The notes beneath the pieces are model-generated. The model did no database searches. It saw only the letters and a list, made by a program, of their open reading frames with translations, and was not told the origin of the DNA. Positions 2,627-52,443 of a stretch of DNA of 64,000 nucleotides are shown here, piece after piece. The DNA comes from Hydrolagus colliei (Eukaryota): contig CM068747.1 in NCBI GenBank assembly GCA_035084275.1, forward strand, positions 22,320,001 through 22,384,000, written 5' to 3'. How positions within the stretch are numbered: the stretch's first letter is position 1; every line of letters begins with the position of its first letter. The translations under genes were made by a program, and so were the position numbers.

Positions 2627-3084
2627 TCTCTCTCTCTCTTTCTCTCTCTCACTCTCTCACTCACCCTTGGCGGTGTCCTGGTATATATAAACTGCATATG
2701 CGTCGCTCTCCGCCTCCCACTCCTGCGCGTGTGCCTGTACGCACGAAGGGGAGAGAGGCTCCTTCACTCTTAGAGGCTTCGTCAGACGAGCCTGCACGCA
2801 CAGAGGAGAGGGAGAGGTGGAGAAGGAGCAGGATTTGCGAGAGCAGGGAGGCACTGGGCATGTGTGAGGGAACCTCTCTTTCACCTCTATGTGCGCAGGA
2901 TAATCTTCGCTCCGGGATGCTACCTCGCGTAAAGAAGGCTTTATAAATACAAGTTGTTTTTGTTGATCCTCTCAATACACTGCCGAAAGGTTCAAAAAAG
3001 CCACGGTTTGTGAACACTCTAAAATTTCTCACCACTAAACTGCAAAATATCTAATTGCTTAACACCGAATACCCGGAACCCCAA
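2627..3084 (+). promoter_or_regulatory. CpG/GC-enriched island with (CT)n tract and TATA box; candidate promoter and non-coding first exon
   Basis: (CT)n at 2627-2658, TATATAAA at 2684-2691, many CpGs at 2700-2930 in a CpG-poor background, and a donor-like CCAA|gtaagg at 3084/3085. Confidence 0.4.
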
Positions 3085-5040
3085 GTAAGGGGAAACGGCA
3101 GGCGAATGGAACTGAAAGAATTTTGCTCTTAAAAGAGCCAAAACAGTTACAATGGCTGTCTTCTGTGCTTTCAATTTCTAAGGTTCTAAACAATGCAGCA
3201 CTCCCCTCAACACAGCGTTGGAGTGTCAGTCTAGACTGTACCAACCTGAGGCTTGAGCCAACAAATTCGGAGGCAAGATTGGCACCGACTGAGCCTTTGT
3301 TAAATTCTGATATCGCAATATACAGTACTGCTATTTCCCATTGGCTTGTTCCTGACTTTTTTTCACTTGGCGACTTTGGATTTCAAAACCAATGTTAACA
3401 CGCTGAAAGTAGCCCCTTCATCATTCTCGACAAATCTAGTTGTGTGAAGAGGACTGGAAAATGGTAATGAACAGGTTCGAAATTCTAAAATGCCGTTCTG
3501 ATAGTTATTCAATCTTCAGATATCCCTCATTAACTTGATCAGTGACCCTAAAATCCCATTTCCCCAGGGAGAGTGCATTACTCTGAAAGCACTATTGATG
3601 CTAATAAAAATGCTGCATAATTATGACTCTCTAAAAGCATATGAAAAGCTCAACTATTTAATCCTTTGCTTCACAGTAGCCTGAAGCACCATTCCAGAAA
3701 AAATACTAATGTGTTATGGCACTTAACTATCCTGTCAATCAGAACTATGATTAAAGAAGCTGTCTGCTTTAATACTGGAGCTGTCAATGGGAAATGTAAT
3801 GAAATTGAACATGTGTATATTACTGTTCACTCAGCCTAACAACCGCACAATTATGTTAGCTTTTTTGCTTCACAGTATGGACTGGTCACCTGTTCAGCTA
3901 TAATCAATCTGATCACTTTATTGTCCTGTAACTATCTATAATAATATATAATAAAATCCTTGCATTTGATATAGTACCTTATTACATCTTTGAGATGTCT
4001 CTCAGCGCTTCACCGAATATACTGTAATAACAATTGACTATATATTTTGCGGGCGAAACAGAGGAATCTATGCTTTTCCTCACAGCTGCAGGACATTGCT
4101 AGTAAATTGTCTTGAATGTCCAAAGCGATTGGGGTGAATACTGTGGACACCAATCAGGACAATGCACAAGTTGATTCAGCCTGTGATCCAATGAAATTAT
4201 CTCCCATTAATTCTGTTCTTCCCACTCGTACGTCTAGCTTCAATTATAAATCGGTGCTGACGTTAATAAAGGCTGTAGTTAAAACTTTACTGTATTTAAA
4301 ACTACAAAGCAATTTGTTTCAACTTTTATGTTTGATTTGTTCAATAAAACTGCTGATACCTATTTTTCTCTCTCTGCAGTCTGATTTTCCCCACTGCTGA
4401 TTTGGGTTCCATCCTTTTTTATTTCGCCTACCTGACCCTTTTTATTTCAAAGTTTGCTTAATTGCTTAATACATAGGTGTGAAACATGAGTTCACTTTTG
4501 GTAATTAACAGCACAGCATTATGTTTCAAGACCTCTCACAATTCTGTGGTTTGGTAATATTAGCTGATAACCTAAGGCTGCACAATTATTAGCTTCTGCA
4601 ACTTGTATTACGGTTTCTATTGAAGGTGAACGAGTTGCAAACGTTTCGATAGATTTCTAGTTAATGATAAGAATATGGAATTTTATTGAGAATTGAGGTA
4701 ACAGAATGAAAAGCATTAGTCACTGTCACTGTGTTAAAGCTGTCTTACTTTTTATTCACTCAAACATACACAGGGGAAATGTCTGTCTTATCTTCAGTAG
4801 ATTGAGCTCTAAATCATCACTAGCAATGATTGTTGAGGGCTACATCAAATATACTACATTAGCTATTTGGAAATTTACTGGCTATTCCTTACCCATAAAT
4901 GGATGAAATAAATTGGTTGTCTCTCACAAAGGTTAAAATATATATCCAGTATCCAGCACCTATACTTGCACTGGAAACCTGCATGAGTTAATAAATTTAC
5001 TTATTATTCATTTCCCACCTTTGCAGCATATAGGTATTGA

Positions 5041-9200: not shown

Positions 9201-9955
9201 TTTGTTGGTTAAATTGTCAGTTACGTACAAGGCAGAGTTGCTAGGAGAGTGAATAATCGTGACTTCACGATCAGCTGATGTGCGCATTTCTTAAATCACA
9301 ACCTGTGGAGCACCACAATTTCTACAACATCTAGATTTCTTTTATTCAAGGGTGACAGACTCTCTATTTAATTGCATCCAGTCTCTCTCCTTATTTGTTC
9401 CAATGCATCAAGAGGCAATTTGGTTCTTTTGTTGCTTGCATGTTGTTGCAGGGCACCTCGTGTATTTATTTCTGTCTTAAGCAGGTCTAGGAGAAGGTAG
9501 TGACCTAGCCGGAACCTCCTAGCGAGTGGGTAAATCAGAGAGTGGATTTGGGGAGTGTTTGAGGCTAAATCAGATTCATTCTGAGAGGATAGGATCTTTG
9601 ATGCTGAATGGATAGTTTGAATGCTTTTACAGTTGCCCGAGACAGACTTGCATGTTTCACCTCCAATTTTTTTTTTGGTGGTTGGGTTCAGATTATCTTG
9701 TTAAACTCCAGCAGTGCCATACATTAAACAAAAATCTGCCTGAGCCATTTTTCATTGCAAGTGGCTCGGTGTGACAGCCTGAAAAGGTAATGAATGGCTC
9801 AGCCAATAGCATTTTGATCCTTTTATTAAGCTTGATTGTTTGATAGTGGTGTGCTGTGCAATATGTCTGTCTGCTGAGATTTGTGCTTCACTGAAGAATG
9901 TTCAAAGATGCTGAGATGAGTCTGACTATAATTGTACTACCTTAGGCCCGTCACT

Positions 9956-10056
9956 ATGGATTCCTCGCCTACAGAGCTGAAGGAATTTGACAGCAGTACC
10001 TTCAAATACCTAAAGCCAGACCATCCTGAGAAAATATGGCTAAGAGTGCAGGGATT
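9956..10056 (+). CDS. PDE1A: PDE1 (probably PDE1A) N-terminal coding exon, PDE1A2/PDE1C1-type start, containing the first part of calmodulin-binding domain 1
   Basis: ACTATGG Kozak context. Reads MDSSPTELKEFDSSTFKYLKPDHPEKIWLRVQG-TT|gtaagt (33 codons + 2 nt, phase-2 donor). Aligns without gaps to recalled human PDE1A MGSSATEIEELENTTFKYLTGEQTEKMWQRLKGI and PDE1C MESPTKEIEEFESNSLKYLQPEQIEKIWLRLRGL. A possible acceptor (ctgac...ccttag|) lies at 9945/9946. The family call is strong; the paralogue call is less certain. Confidence 0.9.
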
Positions 10057-10440
10057 GTAAGTATTTTCTTTATATTGTACTCTTTGAATATGTGAAATAT
10101 TCTGCAGCTTGATTCATTTGACAATAAAATCTTGCACGTCGTAAAGCTTTGCATTGTCCATAAAAAAAACTGTGTGTATGCGTTTCTCTTTTGAAACCAG
10201 CAATGATCTGATGTGCTTTATTATTTATCCTATGCGAAGCTTCTTTTCATACTGTTTCAAAACTATTTCATCAAAATTGGAATATGTACTGAGTGTGGAA
10301 TTATAAAACTAGATGGGCTTGTTGAATGAAGGCTTGGGTTCTGTATATGAAAGGCGCTATACAAATGTAGTTCTGTTGCTGTTGTGATTATTGTATAGGT
10401 CATAACATTCAATCCTCTTGAGAATGACACACAATTGTTT

Positions 10441-10740
10441 TTGGCAAGTTTCCTTACTCCACACACCTCTGTTTACCCAGCAGTAAGTAGGAACCCCGTT
10501 GGTAATTAATGACAGATCGCTTTTTCAGAATTACTGTACAGTAATAATCTCTTCCAAGAAAGTAATAATTTAGTCACTCAATCCACGACTGTTTTGGGAA
10601 CACAGGTGTGCACAATTGGATGCCACATTTCAGCTACAAAACATACAGTCACCACACTTTACAGTATATTCCGTGAAGTGTTTTGAGACGTCTCAACGAC
10701 GTGTTAAAGCGTTAAATCAACTGCAAGGATTATTATTATT
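10441..10740 (+). mobile_element. Headless tRNA-derived SINE, long-middle variant
   Basis: ggcaagtttccttactccacacacctctgtttacccagcagtaagtaggaacc, continuing to the gcaaggattattattatt tail. Confidence 0.85.
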
Positions 10741-11764
10741 TGGTACATTCATTTTCGTAACACATGGAAGATATGCCATTGAGCTAATCTTATTCTCTTT
10801 CATTCATTCTCTCTCTTTCTTATTACACATGACAAGGTATTGTCAATCCAGACAGTGGTGCCATCTAAGAGCAATTATAGTGATGTCATTGAAGAGCGAT
10901 TTGTTGAAAGCACAATGTATTTTTTGTTCTCCCTTTTTTTCCTATCGGTATAATTTAAAGCTGTAAATGTTTTCATTAAAAATGTGATTTTGGTTAAATT
11001 ATCCCTGGAGGAAAATGGATCTCTGTGACATTCATTTGAAATTTGAAAAACAATCTTGTATCCCGCCTAATCAAACAAATTGTCTATCTGTCAGAGTAGG
11101 TGATTCAACTGTCTCCTCAAATAATAAATCTTTAACGAATGAGTTTTAGGACTTAGAACGATCACGAAAGCTTCACTTTCTTTCCCAGCTGGGATAAACA
11201 GAAAAGCAATAATATTTGGGACAACTGGATTGTCGGTTGCAAATTGGAATAAGTAAAAAAAAAGAGTAAATAAATAGAAATAAGACATTTAGATATTTCA
11301 CTTCAGCTTCCAGTTGAAGCATATATTATCACTGTGACACAGTCCAAAGCCAATTTACAAGGACATCTGCACATCTCCACAGGGACCTTCAAGTTGAAAA
11401 CAATATATAGCATTTAGATAAGATAGATAATGGACTTTTGGTGCTTTATACATAATTAACATGTTCTGTGTAAGAATGGCATTTTATTGTTAAAGGTTAA
11501 GTGGCTGTGTTTATTCACTAATATTGACCTCCTTGTTGGTATTGCTTCTAACTTATAAAAACAATGTGATTATATACTTTTGATCAAAACACGACTTTGA
11601 CAAAGATGCATTTTTGCATGTCTGATAAATTCCTTTGATTGCACTCAGTGTTCTTAGAGTATTTTTGAATTATTTAATCAAGTTGTTCGAATTTGATTTG
11701 AAACATTCAAATAACTATTTGTGGAGAGCAAAATGACAGCTAATCTAACATTTTTCTTTTGCAG

Positions 11765-11791
11765 ACAGAAGTACAAAAACACATCACAAAG
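11765..11791 (+). CDS. PDE1A: 27-nt PDE1 micro-exon (phase 2-2) encoding (L)QKYKNTSQR
   Basis: ctaac branch point, then ttttcttttgcag| ACAGAAGTACAAAAACACATCACAAAG |gtaagg. In frame with exon 9956-10056 (TT|A = Leu). Matches PDE1C LRKYKKTSQR. Confidence 0.88.
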
Positions 11792-28376: not shown

Positions 28377-28429
28377 ATGGATGATTGTATTACCATCAAG
28401 AAAAAGCACCTACAAAAACCCATATTTAG
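28377..28429 (+). CDS. PDE1A: PDE1A alternative first coding exon (PDE1A1-type N-terminus) MDDCITIKKKHLQKPIFR
   Basis: AAAATGG-like context (tttaaATGG). 17 codons + AG|gtaaga phase-2 donor. Closely matches mammalian PDE1A MDDHVTIRKKHLQRPIFR. Confidence 0.93.
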
Positions 28430-32110: not shown

Positions 32111-33715
32111 GACATTGAACAACTTCACTTTTTAACTCCAACCACTTCCTCCAGGTAAAAGGGGTCGTAATGGGAACCCGCATGGGTCCCAGCTACGCCT
32201 GCCTGTTTGTTGGCCACCTGGAACACTCCTTGTTCCGGTCCTTCTCAGGCCCGCTCCCCGACCCGTTCCTCAGGTACATTGACGACTGTATTGGGTCTGC
32301 CCCCTGCTCTCGCAGTGAGCTAGAGGCATCTGTAAACCTTGCCTCCACCTTCCACCCCTCCATAAAATTTACATGGACCATCTCTGACACTTCCCTTCCC
32401 TTTCTCGACTTCACCATCTCCACATCAGGCAACTGCCTGTCCACAGACATCTTTTACAAGTCCACTAACTCCCACAGCTACCTTCGCTACACCTCATCCC
32501 GCCCGGCCTCTTGCAAAGATGCCATCCCCTTTTCCCAGTTCCTCCGCCTCCGCCGCATCTGCTCTGAAGATGCAGCATTTCATACCAGAGTGACTGAGAT
32601 GTCTGGATTTTTCCTCGACCAAGGATTCCCACCAATTGTGGCAGCAAAGGCCCTTGACTGTGTCCGTCCGAATTCTCGCACCTCCAGCCTCATGCCTTTC
32701 GCCCCCCCATCGCGGAATCGTGATAGGGTCCCCTTGGTCCTCACTTACCACCCTACCAGCCTCACTATTCAACACATCATCCGCAGAAACTTCCGTCACC
32801 TGCAACGTGACCCATCCACCAAGGATATATTTCCCTCCCCTCCCCTCTCCGCATTCCGAAGGGTCCGTTCCCTCCTGGATTCTCTGGTCTACTCCGCTAT
32901 CAGCACCATCAGCTGCTCTCCTTCCTCTGGCACCTTCCCGTGCCAGCGCAGGAGATGTAATACCTGCCCTTTCACCTCCACCCAAACCACTCTCCAGGGA
33001 TCAAAACACAGCTTCCGTGTGAGACAGCGGTTCACGTACACCACCAACAATATAGTACACTGTATCCGCTGCTCATGGTGTGGTCTCTTCTACATTGGGG
33101 AGATTAAGTGCAGATTGGGAGACTGATTTGCAGAGCATCTTCGCTCTGTATGGAAGGTCAACCCTGATCTTCCAGTCTCCCTCCATTTCAACTTGCGCTC
33201 ACATTCAGGGGCTGATCTTTCGATCCATGGTCTCCCGCGCTGCTCCAGTGACTCACAGCGAAAGCTTGAGGAATAGCACCTCATCTATCTGCTGGGGACA
33301 CTACAGCTGTCTGGCCTCAACATTGATTTCAGGCCATAGGAGTTTCCCCCCCTCCCCCCATCACAATCATACCTCCAGACACCCCCAGGCTCTCTGGTGT
33401 TTTGTTTATTCTATCACCACTAAACACCTCTTCTCCCCAGTTTCGTTTAAACCCACCCCCTTCTGTTTCTCGCCCTGAAGCTGTTGACACATATTCAACC
33501 CATCAATTAACACACTTTTTTTATTTTCCTTTGTCTTCTTTGTCTCCTTTTTCTTCCATGTCCTGCCTCTCCCCCTTTAACGTCCTTATGAAACCTTTCC
33601 CTCCAAACAAGCCCCAGTTCTGACGAAGGGTTGCAGTCCCGAAACGTTGACTCTTTTTCCTTTCTCCATGGATGCTGCCTGATCTGCTGAGTTTTCCCAG
33701 CGACTTTTGTTTTTG
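32111..33715 (+). mobile_element. 5'-truncated, decayed Penelope-like retroelement (RT + GIY-YIG endonuclease + 3' terminal region)
   Basis: ORF 32170-33126 has RT motifs MGTRMGPSYACLF, RYIDD and LPFLD, then a Cys-rich linker and IVHCIRCSWCGLFYIGEIKCRLGD*FAEHL (GIY-YIG). In-frame stops at about 33124 and 33274. A hammerhead-type motif lies near the 3' end. Flanked by a 14-bp near-perfect direct repeat. Confidence 0.93.
33616..33652 (+). ncRNA. Minimal type-I hammerhead ribozyme motif in the Penelope terminal region
   Basis: AGTT-CTGACGA-A-GGG(ttgcagt)CCC-GAAA-CGTT-GACT. Has the CUGANGA and GAAA cores, stem II GGG/CCC, stem I AGTT/GACT, and the palindromic AACGTT typical of dimer-forming Penelope hammerheads. 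Confidence 0.7.
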
Positions 33716-36255: not shown

Positions 36256-39049
36256 TGAAGTGATAGAGGGATGATCGGATGGCTGTTCTGGATGGATGAG
36301 ATCTAATGGACCAAAGCAGCTTCTTCATCTAGACCAACCTTGTGAGCTTATCTTTCAACTCCTTTTGTCCATTTTAGGAGAGAGAAGCTTTTCTTCTGAT
36401 GAGCAGGTGTAGCTGCAAAAAAAAGTCAAAGCACTAGAATTTGACAGGCCACATAATCAATGCATTTTTCAAGTTGTAGTCAGAAGGAGAACAACACGTG
36501 GGGGTGTATATAATATTGTATATGTGCATCAGGTGTTCATCAGAGAGGTCAGATCTTGATATGTGTATAAAATGATTTCACTATTTTCCTACAATGTTTC
36601 CAAACTTTAAAATCTATCACTAAAGTTTCTTCTTCTGTTACGTATCTTACCCTCTATTTTATAGACGTGGGTGAAAACTGGTTTTGCACATGGGTTAACA
36701 GTGTAAAATTGGCAGGGCAGTGACATAGTTGCGACTAAGTCTTGACTAAGGCAATGTTCTTTTCTTGAAAGAACACCAAGGGCTAATAGAAAAAAATTGA
36801 ACAAAAATAACCATTCTCTTATTAGAACACGATATGTGTATGGTTCCCAAAGTCAGTTTTATCGGAAGCTGCTCTGTTTGTGTAGGTAGGTTAGCATTGA
36901 ATTCATCATGTGCTCGCATCAATTTTTTTAAAAAGTCCCTTACCACTGACATAACTCACTGTAGGTGCTGTGTATTTTTTTTAAGAAGCTACAGTTTTGT
37001 TCATTTTTGTGAAATGGCATTCGTTTAATAATACAGAAACACACAGTTCATTGCCAGAAGAGAAAACCACCTACTTATCTCTGTGAATGCTTAAACCAAT
37101 AAAGGAGAGTAGTTTAAGGAAATAAGCTATGCAATTTAAATTACCTCAGAAAGAAAACAAGCAGAATAAAATTTTCGTCTCAAAATATTTCCATATAGGT
37201 TTATAAAAGCTTCTTGGCTCACAAACCTCCACATTAGTTTAATGACGGGAAGGAAAGGTAGGCGATCTCTCTTGCATTTGTTCCCTTTACCATTGACTCC
37301 AACTCGGTAATGAAACTGAATACATCACATTGTCAGTTGCAAAGTTGTTTTTGGAATTGCTCTGCAAGCTGGCAGTAAGTCTGTAAAGACAATGAAGTTT
37401 AAAAACCTAAAGATATATGTTTGAATTTTTTTTAAAAAGGAGTAAAGTTTGAGGTAAAACATATGATGATCAAACATCTCTGACCAACTCTCTACAGCAG
37501 TTATGAAATGCCACAGATGCTGCTTCTAAACCTACAACAAAAATCCCTGCAAAATTTCCAGTTCCCAAACTTAGTCTTCGTACACATAACTTACACCAAG
37601 TTGAGTAATGTAGTGTTCTTCGCCCCCATGTTTCTCTCCCTCTCCCCACCCCCCCACCCCTAACCCCCACCTACACACATCCTATTTGTGCTTTGCAGTT
37701 TAATTATGAGTCATGAGTTACGACCAAAACACTTTAAGCACAAACAGCGTACATTGATGTCTGCACAGGAAATCAGGGCCTGTGGGCTAGAAATCCAAAA
37801 CAGAGGGACAAGACAGGCTCACAATACTCAATATAAATCAGTCCTGTGTGGAGCTATAAATGAAAAGCAGCAGTTTGTGAAAGGTGTAAATGTGATATTT
37901 GAAGAGGGCAGAATAAATAAATGACCAAACTGCTTGTTCCTGATGAGAGAAAATGACTAGAATTTTAACACATAGGCATTTTTTAAAATTGAAAGCCGTT
38001 TGCAGCTTTGTCCCCTAAAAATCTTTGTACCCACCTTCCTCCTTGTTTATCATAGCAATGTTGATCATTTTCTATTCGTTTTATGCACCCTCTCACACTA
38101 TGTTTGCTATCAAAGTACAAATTTTTAGGTGGTAAAGAATGAGACTGCTTTGAGTATTGGATTACTAAATCTCCTAATTGTCAGCAAGGGAAGTTACAAG
38201 GAGAAGCAACTAAGACTGTTCTTCTCCTCTGAGTCCAGGGATATCTTGAGAGAAGCTCACTGGGCAGTGTCAAACGATTCAAGGAGGAAACCCTGTGTCT
38301 AAAATGTATCGGATATTTGCTGAAAGTACTGTGTCTAAGTTTACACTTGGCCATAGCCTTATGACCATTGCCTTAACATGTAATTCCTCCTGCTTCAAGT
38401 GAGCTTGAAGGCCCAATTCCCACAAGTCTACCATAGAGCACAAAGACGTTTTGCCAACAGACTATGAATTGTGCAGATGGATGCAAATATTCTATTTGTC
38501 AGCTTCTTGTTCTCAAAAGAAAATCTTCTGATTTGAACTTTCAGCTTCCAACTTTCAGCACCTTGGGGTGTCCTCCCAACATAAAAGGCGCTATACAAAT
38601 GTCATTTGTTGTTGCTGTTATTGTTGAATTTAATGATATAGAGTGTCACCAAATGACAAGATGCCAATGTGACAACTTGACACTAAGTCTTTCCTTAGTT
38701 TTCCTAAGAGGATGGTGGCAGCTCAGCTGAGCTATCCAGAGCAAGGAGTGACACAGCGATACCATCCATTAGTTAGATTAGTTTTTTTCTTCTGAATGTT
38801 CATTGTGCTGCATATTTGCTTGAAGAAATTGTATCCAATGATTTTATATACTTTTGCTTGTGTTTCAAACCTTTGCCATCTCATTAAAATGATACAGAGG
38901 ATCTACAGCACTAAAGTGTACGATTGAATCCCATGAATGCTCGGTTTAAAAACTATCTTGACTATTTGCATTCAGCTTTTCTCAAGGAGTGAAGTCACCA
39001 GTGTTTGACTTATCTTCGGATGAAGGGAAAACTAGCTGGGAGGGGATAC

Positions 39050-39540
39050 ATATGTGCAAAGGAAGTTTACTAGAATGGTACCAGGATTGAGGGACTTCAG
39101 TTATGGGGAAAGACTAGATAGGCTAGGTTTATTCTCTTTGGAACAGAGAAGGTTGACAGGAAACCTAATAGAGGTTTATAAAATCATGAGGGGATTCGAC
39201 AGGCTGAATAAGGAAAAACTGTTTCCACTGGTGGGCGAATCTGTGACTCGTGGGCACAGATTTAAAATAGTTTCAAAACGAAGCAGAGGGGAGCTGAGGA
39301 GAAATTTGTTCACTCAGCAGGTTATTCGAATCTGGAATGCATTGCCTGAAAAGGTGGTGGAGGCCAATTTGATAACCGCTTTTAAAAGAGAATTAGATCT
39401 TTATTTAGGGAGAACAGGTCTGTTAGGTTATGGGGAGAGAGCGGGGCGGTGGGATTGAGTTGCTCTTTTCAAAGAGCCGGCACAGTCTAGATGGACCGAA
39501 TGGCCTTCTTCTGTGCTGTAAAATTCTATGATTCTATGAT
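39050..39540 (+). mobile_element. CR1 LINE 3' fragment
   Basis: QRKFTRMVPGL...LFSLEQRRL...TRGHRFK...WNALPEKVVEA is the CR1 ORF2 C-terminus. Ends in attctatgattctatga. Confidence 0.93.
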
Positions 39541-51240: not shown

Positions 51241-52443
51241 AGAATCATAGAATCATAGAATCATAGAATTTTACGGCACAAAAGGAGGCCATTCGGCCCA
51301 TCTAGTCTGTGCCGGCTCTTTGAAAAGAGCGATTCAATCCCACTGCCCTGCCCGCTCCCCATAGCCTAATAGACCCGTTCTCCCTAAATAAAGATCTAAT
51401 TCCCTTTTAAAAGTTGTTATCGAATCAGCCTCCACCACCTTTTCAGGCAATGCATTCCAGATTTACCAATTTGTCTATATCCTCTTGCAGATGGCTACTA
51501 TCCTCCTCACTGTTTACTATTCTCCCTAACTTAGTGTCATCTGCAAACTTGGAAACTGTACTCCGTACACCCAAGTCCAGATCATTGATGTAGATTACAA
51601 ACAGCAATGGACCCAAAACCGATCCCTGTGGCACACCACTGCTCACTTCCCTCCAATCTGAAAAACAGCCGCTCACTACAACTCTCTGCTTTCTGTCTCG
51701 CAGCCAGTTGTGGATCCACGCAGCCACTGTCCCTTTTACGCCATGGGCCTTTAATTTCATAATAAGTCTCTCATGTGGCACTTTGTCAAATGCCTTTTGA
51801 AAGTCCATGTAAACTACATCAACTGCGCTACCATTATCCACCCATTCCGTTACCTCATCAAAACATTCTATCAGATTTGTAAGGCAAGATTTGCCTTTAA
51901 CAAATCCATGTTGACTGTCCTTTATTAGCCTATATCTTTCTAAGTGAAGATCTACCTTGTCCCTGATTATGGACTCTAGAAGTTTGCCCACTACCGACGT
52001 TAGACTGACTGGTCTGTAGTTACCAGGCTTGTCCTTCTGCCCCTTTTTATACAAGGGAGTAACATTAGCTATCCTCCAGTCCTCTGGCACGACCCCTGTG
52101 TCCAAGGAAGATTGAAAGATCGTGGCCAGAGTCCCTGCTATTTGCTCCCGTGCCTCACTTAGTAACCTAGGGTGCATCCCATCCGGACCAGGTGACTTAT
52201 CCACCTTGAGCGACGTCAACCTTTTTAGAACTTCCTCTCTGGTAATAATTATTCTATCCATTTCTCCTACCCTCTCCTCTAATACCATGGCATTGGCTGT
52301 ATCCTTTTCTTTTGTGAAGACAGAGGCGAAGTACTCATTCAGTACATCAGCCATGCCCTCTGCCTCCACAATGAGATTTCCTCCTAGGTCCCTAATTGGC
52401 CCCACCCTATCCTTGACCAACCTTTTACTCTTAATATGTTGCT
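51241..52443 (-). mobile_element. 5'-truncated CR1 LINE with RT ORF2 fragment and an internal deletion
   Basis: ORF 51443-52420 has KSPGPDG, NYRPVSLTS, DFQKAFDKV, GVPQGSVLGP and FADD. The 3' tail (TTCTATGA)n appears as agaatcatagaatcat on the + strand. Confidence 0.95.

Follow-up and report, generated by a model that had tools for sequence, protein, structure and literature searches.

A 27-nucleotide micro-exon in the 5' part of chimaera PDE1A, in common with PDE1C and likely lost from PDE1A in amniotes

The window, that is, the whole stretch of 64,000 nucleotides of Hydrolagus colliei DNA analysed here (G000:C14:22320001-22384000; C14, C2, C39 and C23 are contigs of the same assembly, G000), was found to hold the 5' part of the chimaera PDE1A gene. 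In the reading that we consider quite probable, a 27-nt exon within it, common to PDE1A and PDE1C, is as a rule probably spliced in and probably disappeared from PDE1A in the stem lineage of the amniotes; its effect on calmodulin sensitivity would be fine-tuning at most.

Exon boundaries were read from the sequence and are collected in the table below. The 27-nt exon has canonical AG/GT ends, begins after a gap of 1708 nt from the end of the preceding exon, and encodes the peptide QKYKNTSQ followed by a junction Arg. As a chance control, all AG-27 nt-GT candidates were counted from the upstream exon as far as the shared downstream one (225, 149 of them without a stop codon); the micro-exon scored 32 against the paralogue peptide and the runner-up among the 149 open candidates scored 9. 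The in-frame exon proposed in an earlier sequence-only reading was thus recovered at the same position. Its symmetry, also proposed there, holds as well: skipping leaves the frame intact, and the frame into the shared exon (LRCLVKQ) is kept for all four combinations of including or skipping the 111-nt and 27-nt exons. The LRCLVKQ exon starts at C14:22400356, 68.6 kb downstream and beyond the window; together with 11 further AG/GT-bounded exons it gives an open PDE1 frame of 487 amino acids, and the PDEase_I_N and PDEase_I domains of the gene are present in an intact reading frame.

The preceding exon had been taken to begin at the ATG at 9956. That ATG is usable as a start, and the donor assigned to the exon (GTAAGT, phase 2, after 10056) was right; the exon is not only a first exon, as its own acceptor at 9944-9945 makes it a 111-nt internal exon and admits exons from further upstream. 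Two coding exons 5' of the window (C14:22302300-22302369 and 22319103-22319256) match the Callorhinchus milii model and give an N-terminus 78 residues longer, as in that species. In a skate model (P0522) the 111-nt exon was skipped and the micro-exon kept. An alternative MDD-type first exon lies downstream of the micro-exon, so an MDD isoform cannot contain the nine residues. This exon had been put forward as a mark of PDE1A. It is present in the window, and no counterpart was found in the paralogous locus on C2 (best score 23, against 68 on C14), but its value as a mark is weakened by a similar exon in a PDE1B-type row. In that row, an electric eel model (P0241), an MDD-like segment leads into the shared exon, so that the MDD-type exon may predate the split of PDE1A and PDE1B. 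Near the start of the window, sequence signals suggest a possible promoter with a non-coding first exon, which might serve the isoform from 9956; among them are 16 CpG dinucleotides in 2690-2960, where an average 271-nt stretch of the window has 4.5.

Table. Positions within the window of the PDE1A exons and other features.
Feature	Position	Strand	Details
Possible promoter with non-coding first exon (isoform from 9956)	2682..3084	+	TATA-like at 2682; CpG-rich; GTAAG donor at 3085
PDE1A exon, first half of N-terminal helix	9946..10056	+	111 nt; phase 2-2
Micro-exon acceptor region	11740..11764	+	branch-point-like pentamers, pyrimidine tract, AG
Micro-exon, 9 residues	11765..11791	+	phase 2-2; GTAAGG donor
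Alternative MDD-type first exon, coding part	28377..28429	+	phase 2 donor
Retroelement-like frame by eye, long intron	32119-33126	+	no Pfam match
Retroelement-like frame by eye, long intron	39036-39458	+	no Pfam match
Retroelement fragment, long intron	51443-52441	-	Pfam RVT_1, E 7e-29

Phylogeny, a topology test and flanking genes concur that the gene is PDE1A, as had been proposed. The PDEase_I_N exon is 98% identical to a C. milii protein, and among the matches listed, those named to paralogue level were PDE1A. A quick tree of 52 rows placed the window gene with RefSeq C. milii PDE1A (SH-aLRT 99) inside a PDE1A clade (95), and the C2 gene with the PDE1C-type rows (97). In a more careful tree of 18 rows (LG+G4) the pair of window gene and C. 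milii PDE1A was recovered at 100/100; support for the whole PDE1A clade was just 89/92, and the PDE1C-type rows were left unresolved. Forcing the window gene together with four PDE1C-type rows was rejected by the AU test (p 1.98e-05). A grouping of the catalytic region with PDE1C, which would have shifted the anomaly to the MDD-type exon, was therefore found neither in the trees nor in the AU test. Neither tree resolved the branching order among PDE1A, B and C.

On C14 the gene is preceded by an Nckap1-family gene (22.17-22.22 Mb, plus strand) and followed by a KRAP-family gene (22.51 Mb, minus strand) and a NeuroD gene (22.58 Mb, plus strand). By its terminal motifs the last is presumably NEUROD1. 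The order in human 2q32 is NCKAP1 - PDE1A - ITPRID2 - NEUROD1, with which the order and orientation on C14 agree. The neighbours fit PDE1A; of the genes named for PDE1A in the proposed synteny check, the one covered here is NEUROD1, a presumptive label. Members of the KRAP and NeuroD families lie beside the C2 gene too, and the discriminating neighbours are only NCKAP1 and the type of NeuroD. Both PDE1 loci (C14:22.17-22.58 Mb and C2:117.0-117.4 Mb) are followed by KRAP-family and NeuroD genes and form a preserved paralogous block, in which the KRAP-family gene has opposite orientations on the two contigs.

The distribution of the nine residues was tallied over 406 proteins of PDE1A type, which three homologue searches and two look-ups of clusters had drawn from the databases; left out were 155 rows of a representative search and its look-ups (P0208-P0362), the window's own exon and two PDE1C-like bird fragments. 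Inclusion was scored in the rows carrying the preceding exon, and 147 of the 406 were uninformative; rows are gene models, several per species, and count neither independent events nor measured inclusion. The nine residues were included in 31 of the 32 cartilaginous fish rows with the preceding exon, in 63 of the 67 from ray-finned fish, in two of three from lobe-finned fish (present in lungfish, absent from the single coelacanth model) and in the one amphibian row, a caecilian. In another 16 fish rows the micro-exon is joined to 5' exons other than the preceding one. None of 140 amniote rows (turtles, crocodilians, monotremes, marsupials and placentals) includes it, in line with the earlier statement that mammalian PDE1A runs without these residues. 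The informative rows contain no bird, lizard, snake, frog or salamander model. Six non-amniote models skip the micro-exon after the preceding exon (P0197, P0097, P0099, P0101, P0120 and P0124). The last of these, the coelacanth model (XP_064420106.1), may represent skipping or a second loss.

At the junction, lungfish, caecilian and teleosts have Met ahead of the micro-exon; amniotes, like the fish model P0097 that skips it, have Ile ahead of the shared exon. These residues fit simple skipping. As judged from the database sequences, a loss of the micro-exon from PDE1A in the amniote stem lineage is likely. On the same evidence the derived state is that of mammals and other amniotes, not that of the chimaera, and inclusion is the normal annotated state outside amniotes. 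The description of the exon as PDE1C-type, and as a rare retention in this genome, could not be upheld. Searches of the open-access literature found no paper on loss of the micro-exon from amniote PDE1A and none naming both microexon and PDE1A.

Splice signals of the micro-exon were compared with those of 24 constitutive exons of the two PDE1 genes and fell within or above the constitutive range. The donor matches consensus at 8 of 9 positions (constitutive range 6-9), the tract before the acceptor has pyrimidines at 13 of 17 positions (8-15), and two branch-point-like pentamers are found at -25 and -20. No upstream TGC motif was found within 100 nt, except the acceptor's own at -5. These signals and the tally suggest that inclusion is likely the default. 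Inclusion is not strictly constitutive in the gene models: six non-amniote models skip the exon, as noted above, and for one ray-finned fish RefSeq has models both with and without it (XP_061089788.1, XP_061089789.1). Skipped models also occur in other teleosts, in C. milii (one UniRef entry) and in a carp PDE1C-type gene.

The nine residues correspond to 2.5 helical turns. If the segment is assumed to be helical throughout, simple arithmetic puts the hydrophobic face of one half-helix at an angle of 168 degrees to that of the other when the exon is included, and of -12 degrees when it is skipped. The 18-residue hydrophobic moment had a mean of 0.10 over 44 included junctions (range 0.02-0.25) and of 0.57 over 13 naturally skipped junctions (range 0.51-0.63), with no overlap between the two. 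AlphaFold2 models were made of both C. milii forms, and both were weak overall: in the inclusion form one helix was predicted over residues 24-53 (pLDDT 77-78 at 31-50, model mean 60.6), and in the skipped form a low-confidence helix over 24-44 (mean pLDDT 48.2). A search of the PDB returned PDE1B catalytic domains only, with no credible match for the N-terminal region. The nine residues are predicted from these models to lengthen the N-terminal helix and to set its hydrophobic halves in opposition, and the form that looks like the classic amphipathic first calmodulin site is the skipped one, not the included one. Across its junction the inclusion form is predicted to be helical and is basic (+3), with a hydrophobic moment of only 0.11 against 0.56 for the skipped form; a Trp1/Tyr10 spacing remains, which could leave room for a different mode of calmodulin binding.

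In the mechanism suggested by these predictions, several phase-2 modules would splice into the shared LRCLVKQ exon, the micro-exon among them. When it is included, the half-helix that carries the Trp and the one downstream would be separated by an additional 2.5 turns and point in opposite directions; when it is skipped, the halves would run together as a single basic amphipathic helix, known from mammalian PDE1A2 as the textbook first calmodulin site. The switching of the enzyme on and off would reside further downstream, in the inhibitory helix and the second calmodulin site. A bolder proposal is that the textbook PDE1A2 calmodulin helix was itself made by loss of the exon on the amniote stem, fusing opposed half-helices, that PDE1B reached the same state separately, and that some fish still toggle between the states by splicing; we regard it as rather doubtful.

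The choice of N-terminus in PDE1 shifts the EC50 for Ca2+/calmodulin, and the first helix of mammalian PDE1A2 and PDE1B1 reportedly binds calmodulin. Two N-terminal calmodulin sites are described for PDE1 in reviews (PMC13095499, PMC11281825, PMC6023290); three other papers gave background only (PMC9812569, PMC4817061, PMC7216078). According to PMC12610503, human PDE1B cut down to residues 82-501 is still controlled by calmodulin, by way of the inhibitory helix and the site that follows it. With the proteins aligned by a conserved Trp (100 in PDE1B, 105 in P0003), the micro-exon peptide, at 35-43 of P0003, falls inside the deleted part and ends about 44 residues before the boundary at residue 82. 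Since the PDE1B N-terminal region is not needed for activation by calmodulin, any effect of the micro-exon would be one of tuning; the dispensability result concerns human PDE1B, not fish PDE1A.

A rival reading takes the exon of fish PDE1A for a regulated cassette, whose tissue-specific skipping would build the amphipathic site and shift Ca2+/calmodulin sensitivity, with amniotes having fixed the skipped state. The symmetry of the exon, the fish annotated with both forms, the skipped models in teleosts, C. milii and the carp PDE1C-type gene, and the sharp predicted rise in amphipathicity on skipping all agree with this. Table 1 of PMC3327670 also lists a 27-nt Pde1c cassette (chr6:56295120-56295146) that is included in pathological and excluded in physiological hypertrophy of the mouse heart; judged by its length and isoform labels only, it is probably the homologous exon. 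The authors of that report tie the event to Pde1c1 versus Pde1c2, however, so that it may reflect first-exon choice only. With 31 of 32 chondrichthyan rows including the exon, strong splice sites, no TGC enhancer-like motif upstream and a corresponding region that is dispensable for PDE1B activation (PMC12610503), we consider a regulated cassette of this kind unlikely. A switch limited to tuning is possible in some bony fish, as far as their gene models indicate.

The C2 paralogue carries an exon of the same length and phase (27 nt, 2-2) at the same position (G000:C2:117017808-117017834), 2701 nt after an exon homologous to the preceding exon of C14, and 19 of its 27 nucleotides are identical to the C14 copy. 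In the reverse test at the C2 locus the exon scored 32 and the next candidate 14 (376 candidates, 259 of them open). By length, phase, position and related sequence, the window exon is thus homologous to the 27-nt exon of PDE1C. The name PDE1C for the C2-type rows is presumptive, taken from a motif quoted in the sequence-only reading; no retrieved row bore it. The same exon at the same position in the paralogue indicates that the micro-exon arose before the duplication that gave PDE1A and PDE1C, in agreement with the age first proposed for it. A weak third match of the upstream exon, on C23 (E 0.52), was taken as chance, with no splice donor where one was expected.

A similar 9-mer stands at the same place in row P0211 (XP_061411803.1), which fell outside the PDE1A and PDE1C clades in both trees. 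Its accession range is one that we take to be lamprey, and it joins a PDE1C2-like upstream segment to the micro-exon-like 9-mer. The nine residues are missing from PDE1B-type rows, and in invertebrate-type rows the upstream segment is a different one. The micro-exon might conceivably have arisen by duplication of the 3' end of the invertebrate-type upstream exon; the terminal Arg common to both is explained by the phase-2 splice consensus. PDE1B was not found in this genome by a family search and a protein search, which gave only two PDE1 loci, and was absent by tblastn from 150 kb around a second Nckap1-family gene (C39:1830001-1980000, containing 600 N). The missing PDE1B reflects either a loss in chimaeras or a gap in the assembly.

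That PDE1A acquired the exon later from PDE1C, through gene conversion or copying of the exon, or that the window gene is a second PDE1C, would accommodate the alike peptides, the PDE1B-type rows without the residues and the open branching order, but is very improbable: the AU test rejects membership of PDE1C and largely refutes that identity, the two genes lie on different large contigs with matching neighbour families, the first residue of the 9-mer (usually Gln in PDE1A, Arg in PDE1C-type rows) fits an old divergence, and P0211 carries its 9-mer outside both clades.

The closest known counterpart is C. milii PDE1A (XP_007888298.2, our P0194; A0A4W3J5Q7), the same gene with the same upstream exons and an identical nine-residue peptide; it differs by a few substitutions only, and its UniRef model A0A4W3J1L6 skips the exon. 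The PDE1C1-type N-terminus (rabbit A0A5F9CSR5, carp rows and the C2 gene) has a homologous preceding exon, likewise followed by a 27-nt exon of phase 2-2 that leads into the shared one, but belongs to a different paralogue, in which the micro-exon was kept in mammals. In mammalian PDE1A2 and PDE1B1 the exons that make the first calmodulin-binding helix are the same two, the preceding and the downstream one; there, with no micro-exon between them, the halves are contiguous and amphipathic. Neural microexons controlled by SRRM3 and SRRM4 have a UGC motif in the upstream pyrimidine tract and neural-specific inclusion. The PDE1A exon resembles them in being at most 27 nt long, frame-preserving, deeply conserved and at a possible interaction surface, and differs in having no upstream UGC-type motif and in its apparently default inclusion.

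As a sequence feature the exon is ordinary, being already present in RefSeq and UniProt models of the Callorhinchus orthologue and in public models from most fish. PDE1 is a drug target, and the view of the human enzymes is unchanged by these results. What they give is a polarity: the difference between mammalian PDE1A and PDE1C likely reflects a loss from amniote PDE1A, not an invention of PDE1C. They also provide two naturally occurring protein forms, differing by the nine residues, with which the role of the N-terminal calmodulin site of PDE1 may be probed.
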